In this document: piece by piece, positions 10,955 through 13,900 of the stretch
Layout: each line of letters opens with the position of its first letter
Numbering within the stretch: position 1 is the first letter of the stretch
Source: an uncultured Candidatus Saccharibacteria bacterium
Lineage (GTDB): Bacteria > Patescibacteriota > Minisyncoccia > Phycocordibacterales > JAACPR01
DNA length: 61,611 nucleotides
Reading direction: 5' to 3'
Assembly (NCBI GenBank): GCA_964574865.1
Contig: CAZNOT010000001.1
Coordinates: forward strand, 1 to 61,611
Program-made: the position numbers and the translations under genes
The notes under the pieces: generated by a model
Database searches by the model: none
What the model was told of the DNA's origin: nothing
The model's input: only the letters and a program-made list of their open reading frames with translations

Positions 10955-13900
10955 CTAACGAGAATGGAACTATTAGTACACCTCGGCTCACGCGTTACCG
11001 CGTTTACACCTGGTGCCTATCAACCTGGTCATCTCCCAGGGTTCTCGTAACGATTATTCATCTTAGGGCCGGCTTCCCGCTTAGATGCTTTCAGCGGTTA
11101 TCCGTTCCCGACATAGCTACCCAGCGGTGCCACTGGCGTGACAGCTGGTAGACCAGAGGTCAGTCCACTTCGGTCCTCTCGTACTAGAAGCAGCTCCCTT
11201 CAATAATCAACGCCTGCAGTAGATAGGAGACCAACCTGTCTCACGCATGTTTTCCACGCATTGCTGCGCGCATTGGACTGTATCTTCACCCCCGTATCGT
11301 GAGGGTGGCTGGCTTGCAGTCTCTACGGGCGCGTCGTTTTTAGTGACGCTTCCCTCGGTGTTGCCCACGACCTCTATCTACTGAGCCGTGGGTTTCCCCG
11401 AAATTAGCCAGCTGGTCGTAACGTGTTGCCATGCTACGCCGCCGTGTTTGGTTGATCTCTACATGGAACCATTGGACTCTCGTCCGGTTCCCCAACTCTT
11501 CTCTCTGTCCTAGGGGTTCAGACTGTGGAACTCCCGATTCCTCCGAATCGGACCCTCCACGGTCTGAACCCAGCTCACGTAACTTTTTAATTGGCGAACA
11601 GCCAAACCCTTGGGACCTTCTCCAGCCCCAGGATAAGTTGAGCCGACATCGAGGTGCCGAACACTGCCGTCGCTATGGACGCTTAGGCAGTACCAGCCTG
11701 TTATCCCCAGAGTAACTTTTATCCGTTGAGCTCCCCCCGCGTCTAACACGTAGGGTCGGATCACTATGCTCCGCTTTCGCGTCTGTTCGGCATGTACGCC
11801 TCACAGTCAAGCTCTCTTATGCCATTGCACTATCGGCACGGTTTCCATTCGCGCCTAGAGAACCTTGGTAGGCTCCTCCGTTACTTTTTAGGAGGATAGC
11901 GCCCCACCAAAACTGCCCATCAGACACTGTCTCCCACGGGTTTTGTCCCGCGGGGTTAGATCGTACGCGCTTGGAGGATGGTGTTTCATTGACGAGTCCA
12001 CGTCCCCCGGAAGGGACGCTTCAACCTCTACCACCTACGCTGCGCACCAAGATCGTACGGCCAATGCCAAACTGCAGTAAAGCTTCTGGGGTCTTTTCGT
12101 CTAGCTGCAGGTAAGCGGCATCTTCACCGCTACTGTATTTTCACCGGGCGAGTCCTCGAGACAGTTCCCCATTCGTTACACCATTCGTGCGCGTCTGAAC
12201 TTACCAGACAAGGAATTTCGCTACCTTAGGATCGTTATAGTTACGACCGACATTCACCAGGGCTTACGCCGGTCACCCTAAACCTTGCGGCTTAGGACGC
12301 CAACGTTTGACCTTCTGGCATTGGTCAGGTGTCACCCCCTATACTTCCTCTTTCGAGTTCGCAGGGAGCTGTGTTTTTGGTAAACAGTCGATAGGGAATC
12401 TTTAGCTGCGGCCCCCTTGCGGGGGCAGGCCTTATCGCTAACTTACGGCCGCTTTTTTGCCGAGTTCCTTGAGGACATCTCACCCGTTCGTCTTAGTCTT
12501 CTCGACCTAGCCACCTGTGGCGGTTTGCGGTACGGATTCTGCGCGTTAGAGCTTAGGAGCTTTTCTTGAAGGCGCGTTCCGTGGAATCTCCCAGGTTTCC
12601 CTAGAATTTCCGCACCGGCTTGATTCGCCATTAAAGGCAGCTGCCCGGATTTACCTAAGCAGCATCTTACCGAAACGGACCCAAATCCAATAATGGGCTC
12701 CACGTAATACACCCCGTCACTCCATCGCACGCGCAGATAGTCACGGAATATTAACCGTGTATCCATCGGGTTCGGCTTTCGCCATCCCCTTAGGGCCGAC
12801 TAACCCTTCGCCGATCACCGTTGCGAAGGAACCCTTGGCTTTTCGACGTTTCCGGCTCTCACGGAAATTGTGGTTACTTGTGCCAACATTCTCACTTCGC
12901 GACGCTCCACCAGGGGTCACCCCTCCGGCTTCAGCGCGACGCGAACGCTCTCCTACCGCTCGTACTTTCCGAGGAAAATACGAGCCCCCGACTTCGGTAC
13001 GACGCTTTAGCCCCGATCATTTGCGGCGCAGAATCTCTGAGCGAGTGAGCTGTTACGCTTTCTTTGAATGGTGGCTGCTTCTAAGCCAACATCCTCGCTG
13101 TCAATGAAATTCCACCACCTTAGCTTGCACTTAGCGTCGATTTAGGGACCTTAATCTGAGATCTGGACTGTTTTCCTTTTGACCAGTGGAGCTTAGCCCC
13201 CACGGTCTAACTGCCGGGTAATAAGGTGCGGTATTCGGAGTTTGATAGGTCTCGTGAGTTTTCACCCTGTCGAGACCTTCCAGTGCTCTACCCCCACACC
13301 GTCCGCCCGACGCCAGCCCAAAAGCTGTTTCGGAGAGAACCAGCTATTACTAGGTTCGATTAGCTTTTCACTCCTTGCCACAGGTCATCCGAAGGAGTCG
13401 CACGACCAACCGGTTCGGGCCTCCCTCTGCCTTTCGGCAGAGTTCACCCTGCCCATGGCAAGCTCACCTAGCTTCGGGTCTAATTCCAACGACGAGCGCG
13501 CTGTTCACACTCGGTTTCCCTCTGGCTCCGCGCTCGCGCGCTTAGCCTGCCGTTGGAATTAACTCGTTGGCTCATTCTTCAATAGGCACGCCATCGTCCA
13601 CCTCCCGCCTTGCGGCGGGCGACTCTGACTCCTTGTAAACGCACGGTTTCAGACTATTTCATTGTCCTCTCGGACTGCTTTTCACCGTTCCCTCACGGTA
13701 CTTGTTCACTATCGATCTTGGAGGATATTTAGCCTTAGCGGTTAGTACCGCTGGATTCGCTCGGGCTAATCGTGTCCCGAGCTACTCAAGAACCACAGCC
13801 AGAAAGTTGCGTCGATTTCGCCCACCGGGCTTTCACCGTCTGGGGCGCGCCGTTCCAGGCGCTTAGGCTATCGAAGCAATTTTTGACTCTCCCAGCTTAT

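Follow-up and report, generated by a model that had tools for sequence, protein, structure and literature searches.

A probable group I intron after U2593 in the only 23S rRNA gene of a Saccharibacteria genome, with a proposed auxiliary helix binding the upstream exon

The stretch of DNA analysed here (hereafter the window) comprises 61,611 nucleotides (nt) of contig CAZNOT010000001.1 in the assembly GCA_964574865.1, from an uncultured Candidatus Saccharibacteria bacterium of the candidate phyla radiation (CPR). On its minus strand lies a 23S ribosomal RNA (rRNA) gene, and within that gene an insert of 313 nt, which is the subject of this report. The gene matches the Rfam model RF02541 with 2321 bits over model positions 1-2925 and is followed by a 5S gene at 10713-10823. 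The genome amounts to 615 kb in 58 contigs and is 91% complete; one copy of the insert was found in it, and the 23S gene is single copy in the assembly.

10952-14330, minus strand: 23S rRNA host gene, single copy (RF02541)
11246-11558, minus strand: insert of 313 nt read as a group I intron, devoid of an open reading frame (ORF), after E. coli U2593

The insert runs from 11558 down to 11246, its first and its last base being G. In RNA sense, exon 1 terminates with ...GGGTTCAGACCGT at 11559 (the longer string reads ...GGGUUCAGACCGU) and exon 2 restarts at 11245 with CGTGAGACAGG, the conserved sequence there being CGUGAGACAGG. At the insertion point the Rfam alignment of the large subunit (LSU) rRNA sets 319 bases against 6 model positions, and the junction is unambiguous because moving the border by a single base in either direction would alter the conserved mature sequence. 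An ungapped alignment to the annotated E. coli 23S gene (locus 467-3370, T at 3059) identifies the last base of exon 1 with E. coli position 2593, and the insertion accordingly falls between 2593 and 2594, the site of the L2593 lineage of introns. It therefore sits in domain V, where the 5' strand of helix 93 reaches its 3' end, in the peptidyl-transferase region adjoining the catalytic centre of the ribosome, in the sole 23S gene. The original prediction, made from the sequence letters, had described an insert with exactly these borders at the 2593 site, a 5' exon ending in U, a terminal G and the lack of a homing-endonuclease ORF. The coordinates, the two terminal bases (at 11559 and 11246) and the alignment bear it out in each of these respects, and inside the insert no ORF of more than 53 amino acids (aa) was found.

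The insert is very probably a group I intron equipped with a guide sequence and an auxiliary helix, residing after U2593 in helix 93 of the only 23S gene. A permissive Rfam scan matched it to RF00028 at 11254-11475 on the minus strand, covering the full model (46.4 bits, E 9e-11). A BLAST search of the insert against 33 genomes of the same GTDB family returned six relatives with an insert at the identical site, 294-378 nt in size, whose RF00028 scores range between 41 and 65.7 bits and in three cases exceed 50. All the elements from P1 to P10 could be mapped on the window copy, among them the conserved core with P3-P8, the P3/P7 pseudoknot, an A-rich J4/5 and the J8/7 and J6/7 consensus. The proposal of a group I intron had leaned on two strings thought to resemble the P7 core, AAGATACAGTCC and GAGACTGCAAG; both are present and align to the J8/7-P7 and the J6/7-P7-J7/3 consensus of RF00028, and the GCAA-capped hairpin that had been pointed out near the 3' end turns out to be P9. 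The core features, all on the minus strand, are as follows.

11527-11558, minus strand: P1.1 hairpin, intron nt 1-32, from the first intron bases (two pairs doubly changed)
11465-11491, minus strand: P1.2 hairpin with GAGA tetraloop, peripheral, inside the expanded L1 loop (one compensatory change relative to the same-genus copy)
11418-11437, minus strand: P2 hairpin with GCAA tetraloop, one base past the guide (three compensatory changes relative to the same-genus copy)
11407-11412, minus strand: P3, 5' strand (three pairs changed on both sides)
11355-11401, minus strand: P4-J4/5-P5-J5/4-P4' domain, with A-rich J4/5 (AAA) and J5/4 (CAA)
11327-11354, minus strand: P6/P6a hairpin, whose loop is the place of the endonuclease ORF in sister introns
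11317-11326, minus strand: J6/7 (GUAGA) and P7, 5' strand (GACUG), from the RF00028 consensus alignment
11308-11313, minus strand: P3, 3' strand, 3 nt after P7
11287-11307, minus strand: P8 hairpin
11276-11286, minus strand: J8/7 (AAGAUA) and P7, 3' strand (CAGUC)
11271-11273, minus strand: P9.0, 5' strand, AUG in J7/9, pairing with the 3 nt before the terminal G
11255-11270, minus strand: P9 hairpin with GCAA tetraloop (own-versus-cross complementarity)
11246-11249, minus strand: P9.0, 3' strand CAU (11249-11247), and the terminal omega-G (11246)

Support for this structure comes from anchor-based comparisons in Python and from a formal pair count on an alignment of six family sequences. In the latter, 97.7% of the cells are paired, as opposed to 28-42% with the partners slid; 11 pairs are changed on both sides, and the covariation score was reached by none of 500 shuffles. 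Since the MAFFT alignment of the six introns has P2 one column out of register and also misaligns distal P5, these two helices were excluded from the formal count and tested by own-versus-cross complementarity. A case in point concerns the same-genus copy, the exons of which are 98.5% identical to those of the window while the intron is only 85% identical, the differences being compensatory in P2, P6a and P1.2.

A larger comparative set was assembled by scanning one genome per species for the conserved P4'-P6-J6/7-P7 string, which yielded at least 119 loci, mostly from Patescibacteria. Among the loci listed, 68 are exact L2593 inserts and 8 more have variant flanks, with sizes of 213-519 nt; the comparison counts over 77 introns given below are drawn largely from the at least 119 listed loci. 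The core motif is not specific to L2593, being found in group I introns of 16S genes and in non-rRNA ones too, and only verified L2593 flanks were used. In this larger set, full complementarity within an intron, as compared with that across introns, amounts to 91% versus 17% for P2, 95% versus 12% for P9, 83% versus 24% for P3 and 64% versus 23% for P6, and P1.1 scores 5.81 versus 3.96 of 7. An independent class sample of 19 L2593 inserts, selected solely by a split exon query, displays the same core and guide, in smaller numbers.

The 3' splice site is fixed after G 11246 by the compensating combinations of P9.0, the helix that J7/9 forms with the three bases preceding the terminal G. Seven such combinations occur, namely AUG/CAU (21 introns), AUC/GAU (16), UUG/CAA (7), AUC/GGU (4), AUA/UAU (2), UUC/GAA (1) and GUA/UAC (1). 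The intron thus ends with the G expected of its class, and both P9.0 and P10 co-vary.

As for the 5' splice site, it follows a U that forms a U.G wobble with the internal guide sequence. The guide strand and its two exon partners lie at the following positions.

11559-11562, minus strand: P1 exon strand CCGU, with the 5' splice site after U 11559; pairs with GCGG, with the U.G wobble
11439-11446, minus strand (read 11446-11439): internal guide CACG/GCGG = CACGGCGG, intron nt 113-120, the P10 strand followed by the P1 strand; complement of CCGU-CGUG, co-varying with the exons
11242-11245, minus strand: P10 exon strand CGUG, 23S 2594-2597; pairs with guide CACG

In the family of the window the string CACGGCGG(C/U) is near-invariant. 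A strand fully complementary to the ligated junction CCGU-CGUG would read CACGACGG, from which the guide differs by a single A-to-G change; as this change sits opposite the splice-site U, it produces the wobble, with G117 facing U2593. GCGG and exon CCGU make up P1, and CACG and exon 2 CGUG make up P10. In 69 of the 77 introns the complete set of eight junction pairs forms, including the G that faces U, against 2% of shuffles. On the side of exon 1, ACCGU is matched by GCGG(U/C) in some 70 introns and AACGU by GCGUU in six out of six, copies of DPANN archaea included; on the side of exon 2, CGUG goes with CACG, CGUA with UACG (3/3), CGCG with CGCG or AGCG (2/2) and UGUG with CAUA. Being located one base upstream of a GNRA-capped hairpin, the guide also identifies that hairpin as P2. 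In four compact relatives (L016, L040, L072 and L099) a plain P1 hairpin is built on the guide. The DPANN archaeal L2593 inserts (L024, L049 and L078) possess a well-matched guide, e.g. CGCG/GCGUU; the base before their exon 2 is A (...UAUAUA before CG(U/C)GAG), or else C, should the repeated C be counted with the 3' end of the intron and not with its start; they seem to be without a terminal G (borders drawn by eye from BLAST ends).

Apart from the guide, the intron holds a further strand complementary to the 5' exon. The P1 loop, expanded to about 110 nt, includes this strand, here called X', which pairs with the exon just upstream of P1 to form a helix termed X.

11562-11571, minus strand: X exon strand, 23S 2581-2590, GGGUUCAGAC; 10/10 pairs with intron nt 36-45, with co-variation
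11524-11526, minus strand: linker ACA between P1.1 and X'; alternative pairing with G2592 and U2593
11514-11523, minus strand (read 11523-11514): X' strand GUCUGAACCC, intron nt 36-45; co-varies with the exon

In the window copy the ten pairs of X are all Watson-Crick, a match attained by none of 5000 shuffles of the region; the same 10/10 match is found in 35 of 77 introns and in 0.7% of shuffles. When G.U pairs are allowed and 9 of 10 pairs suffice, 13% of shuffles pass. Because this laxer test discriminates weakly, the argument for X is based on the 10/10 matches and on compensatory changes linked to the exon. Along this line, A2588 faces U in 18 of 18 introns, while G2588 faces C (35) or U (5); U2586 faces A (3/3), and exon AAAAC faces GUUUU. 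G2583 is paired with C in 25 introns and with U in 33, which shows selection of the pairing at the RNA level. Overall, the partner strand co-varies with the exon in 64 of the 77 introns. The exon stretch bound by X (2581-2590) includes the peptidyl-transferase bases G2583, U2584 and U2585.

The order of the strands along the RNA is exon 2581-2590, CCGU, X' and GCGG, so that X and P1 cross and, if formed together, would make a pseudoknot or a three-way junction. Indeed, two compact relatives (L059 and L088) have a short X hairpin with CCGU in its loop, the layout of a classic pseudoknot. The distribution of X among the introns goes along with another structural trait. The P7.1/P7.2 extension, a hallmark of subgroup IA (Michel-Westhof), is absent from the window intron, in which only 3 nt (CAA) separate P7 from P3', and P7 and J8/7 lie 38 nt apart, as compared with a median of 83 nt in extension-bearing relatives. 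Among the 77 introns, those bearing X are without P7.1/P7.2 (median distance of 39 nt, n=64) and introns without the full X carry the extension (median of 83 nt, n=13). X may hence be regarded as an alternative means of stabilising the active site in introns deprived of P7.1/P7.2; the split may also mirror two clades only.

Splicing would proceed according to the established group I mechanism. In the first step, an external guanosine bound in P7 would attack after U2593; in the second, the terminal G of the intron, placed by the 3-bp P9.0, would replace it, and the free 3'-OH of exon 1 would attack after that G. The exons would then be joined as ...CAGACCGU/CGUGAGACAG (11559 to 11245), with helix 93 restored. 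The preferred reading of X, deduced from its pairing, is that of an auxiliary exon-binding helix serving as a clamp for the 5' exon: it would hold and present the exon to a P1 of merely 4 bp and, before ligation, keep the exon strand out of helix 93. Extended to the lineage, the proposal is that most CPR L2593 introns possess a 9-10-bp X helix which forms a pseudoknot or a three-way junction with the 4-bp P1 and acts as a second exon-binding clamp. This is put forward tentatively, as a real possibility that falls short of being probable. A limited, non-exhaustive search of the literature found no description of an upstream-exon clamp in group I introns.

Several points weigh against the interpretation given so far. 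The RF00028 score of the window copy is under the curated Rfam gathering score of 50 bits, and part of the comparative set was picked with the core-motif pattern. P1 and P10 count only 4 bp each and are almost invariant within CPR, and their covariation comes from few lineages (DPANN archaea and a few CPR variants) instead of independent events. Removal of the insert, ligation and protein-independent self-splicing are all inferred, from the conserved splicing elements and from the location in the only 23S gene. With regard to X, the usual linker ACA is able to pair with G2592 and U2593 while opposing C2591 in a conserved A.C mismatch, and nearest-neighbour energies prefer the continuous long hairpin that results (-60.2 kcal/mol) to X plus P1.1 with CCGU free (-51.2 kcal/mol) and to P1 without X (-39.2 kcal/mol). 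The conservation of the linker is likewise compatible with the long hairpin, and X and P1 may alternate, not coexist.

The alternative that fares best builds on this last point. X/X' and P1 would be mutually exclusive, the long hairpin being a co-transcriptional holding structure or a kinetic trap that opens at least at CCGU before the guide binds, and that thereby delays or regulates splicing or chaperones exon folding. It is consistent with a linker kept pairable with G2592 and U2593, with an A.C mismatch at C2591 that would ease strand exchange, with a hairpin that surpasses X plus P1.1 (CCGU being free) in stability by 5-9 kcal/mol, and with the hairpin being transcribed about 70 nt ahead of the guide. 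However, the energies of the long hairpin and of P1 without X imply that mutual exclusion would block P1: melting X in full would cost P1 about 21 kcal/mol, which is hard to reconcile with an essential single-copy gene. Moreover, only 3-4 pairs beside the splice site truly compete, and the compact relatives without ACA pairing, in which CCGU stands in the loop of the X hairpin, fit with coexistence. Strict exclusion thus appears rather unlikely; given the linker conservation and the fixed A.C mismatch, a hairpin that closes co-transcriptionally and later cedes its last pairs to the guide is plausible.

Quite improbable is that the long hairpin itself is P1, with exon GGGUUCAGACCGU and the first intron bases paired to ...UUCCACAGUCUGAACCC and with ACAGUCUGAACCC as the guide. 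That hairpin is the minimum-free-energy fold, both of its halves co-vary, its linker usually permits the pairs with G2592 and U2593, and its layout is like that of an ordinary P1 with an intron extension. Yet the base facing the splice-site U is mostly A and sometimes G or C, with no conserved G, and the bases 5' of that position cannot make P10 with exon 2. L016, L040, L072 and L099, as well as the archaeal introns, are without the X' strand and nevertheless have a GCGG or GCGUU guide beside P2; it is CACGGCGG that matches the ligated junction, with the wobble G rightly placed, and that co-varies with both exons. The same evidence settles the fate of a 13-nt segment, ACAGTCTGAACCC, which the original prediction had proposed to pair with the 5' exon in the manner of P1: it does pair with the exon, but it is not the guide, since an A faces the splice-site U and no P10 can be formed.

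Hardly to be credited, finally, is an insert that is never spliced, being retained in mature 23S or excised unligated in the manner of an RNase III intervening sequence, with a fragmented 23S as the outcome. In favour of it, the window copy is just below the Rfam cut-off, and an unspliced bacterial 23S group I intron, Simkania L1931, has been reported (reference 28 of PMC11270868). Against it, P1 with its U.G, P10, P9.0, the terminal G and the P7 core are all kept and co-vary, a conservation that would be unexplained if exon ligation were not under selection. The site is in helix 93 beside the catalytic centre, within the sole 23S gene. The fold of the insert is a group I core, and its two ends do not come together in the plain extended stem usual for RNase III intervening sequences. 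CPR rRNA insertions are stated in PMC11270868 (citing Brown et al.) to be absent from transcripts.

The kinship of the group I intron can be traced further by means of its sister copies. In the family of the window, the region is assembled in 23 genomes, of which 21 are interrupted at the site and a single one, G008, is free of the intron; in a class sample of 150 genomes, about a third of those with the region are split, with inserts from about 260 to about 1260 nt. The near-fixation in the family suggests vertical inheritance of the intron. In G008 the 23S is continuous across 2593 (G008:C9:8546-8845; 92% identity over the 300-nt spliced query) and represents a natural intron-less allele.

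Sister introns of about 670-840 nt in the class sample harbour, in L6, a sense ORF of 149-180 aa, one of which matches both I-CreI (E 1e-22) and I-MsoI (E 5e-36). In L128-L134, L146 and L147, this L6 ORF overlaps the ribozyme core: it begins within P4'/P6, where the frame is open (UACCGAGGGAAG reads YRGK), and stops at the UAG inside the conserved J6/7 string CCCGUAGAGACU. The window intron, with no ORF above 53 aa, is devoid of a single-motif LAGLIDADG gene. Since sister introns with the same core and guide carry a gene of the I-CreI family, the window copy represents the endonuclease-free form of the lineage, that is, a ribozyme of the L2593 (I-CreI-site) lineage from which the mobility gene is absent. 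The homing site of I-CreI type and rRNA insertions as a hallmark of CPR, both invoked in the original prediction, are in keeping with these endonucleases, with the 21 split genomes out of 23 and with the status of 2593 as a published CPR site.

The core string was met at other loci as well. It occurs at loci with bacterial and archaeal 16S genes (L014, L044, L047, L054 and L074), with an RF00028 match (60-66 bits) within the 16S span in L014 and L044, and in group I matches of 56-84 bits on contigs without a nearby rRNA (L022, L023, L028, L037 and L038). L012 combines the group I core motif with a match to group II intron D1-D4 just downstream of 16S (1641-1719; 41 bits, cut-off 35), on a contig labelled Gammaproteobacteria. 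Several other intron contigs are labelled Gammaproteobacteria or Pseudomonadales too (L009, L023, L028, L041, L052, L068 and L080, in addition to L012); L068 has the CPR-type exon GACCGU and CPR-like 23S flanks, and some such bins may hold mis-binned CPR contigs.

As regards the host gene, the 23S shows a domain I expansion at about 13930-14040 on the minus strand, where the Rfam LSU alignment sets 102 bases against 7 positions around model position 281; smaller expansions follow, one of 26 versus 9 bases and one of some 20 additional bases around model position 310. As expansion segments of the rRNA, they have nothing to do with the intron. A scan of the whole 61.6-kb window at the Rfam gathering threshold recovered 23S and 5S only, with 16S and tRNAs not found. 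A match to FsrA (RF02273) on the plus strand at 11471-11566 reached 23.3 bits against a cut-off of 80 and was dismissed as chance.

In view of its prevalence in the family and of the published 2593 site, the window copy is a further example of a documented phenomenon and an intron ordinary for CPR; the auxiliary helix X is its one new point. For annotation, the mature 23S would be 313 nt shorter than the gene, should the intron be spliced as inferred, and the only ribosome supply of the organism would rest on a working ribozyme. The exact exon junction and the guide sequence are now defined, and a structure model backed by covariation is available for a large family that counts at least 96 introns, some with an endonuclease of I-CreI type and some lacking it. 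If X is a clamp or a folding guide, it would constitute a compact natural case of exon recognition beyond P1 and P10, with a bearing on how introns coexist with rRNA folding and on engineered trans-splicing or circularising ribozymes; it might also help to explain the persistence of endonuclease-free introns in an essential single-copy gene.

Among known systems, the introns at position 2593 of CPR are close to the window intron. CPR 23S rRNA introns were first noted by Brown et al. 2015, and in the survey by Tsurumaki et al. 2024 (J Bacteriol, PMC11270868) 2593 is among the recurrent CPR 23S insertion sites and a hot spot for inserts encoding LAGLIDADG_1, the insertions clustering round the peptidyl-transferase centre and being classed as group I in 45% of cases with the same Rfam model. 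Host group, gene and site are the same as for the window intron. The survey consists of counts and endonuclease biochemistry; its text, as consulted, offers no secondary structures, and guide, P9.0 and auxiliary exon helix are accordingly not described in it. The window copy, for its part, is ORF-less.

The sister copies of the window intron encode endonucleases of the I-CreI/I-MsoI family. I-CreI itself is encoded by the LSU intron of the Chlamydomonas chloroplast, whose insertion site is identical to that of the window intron. Cyanobacterial L2593 introns, found in Synechococcus C9, S. lividus C1 and Thermosynechococcus, are endonuclease-bearing and have P7.1/P7.2 (Haugen et al. 2007, PMC1995217). 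Besides the site, the cyanobacterial and Chlamydomonas introns have in common with the window copy a P2 and a P5 that is short. Unlike those introns, of 744-748 nt and provided with an endonuclease gene and P7.1/P7.2, the window intron measures 313 nt, is ORF-less and features a 3-nt gap between P7 and P3' and an expanded P1 loop with X', the others being compared by description only.

The Azoarcus tRNA-Ile intron (IC3) is small, is devoid of P5abc and displays GNRA loops on P2 and P9, a P9.0 and a GUAGAGACU-like string at J6/7-P7. The window intron has in common with it the small size, the lack of P5abc, the GNRA loops of P2 and P9, the P9.0 and the GUAGAGACU-like string; it differs in host gene and in J8/7, and its nearest sequence relatives include copies with P7.1/P7.2. 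Comparable to X is the alternative P(-1) hairpin of the Tetrahymena pre-rRNA, a competing helix within the exon which inhibits P1. In both cases the exon immediately 5' of P1 contributes bases to a helix which influences, or in X would influence, the availability of P1; unlike in P(-1), however, the partner strand of X lies inside the intron and co-varies with the exon.

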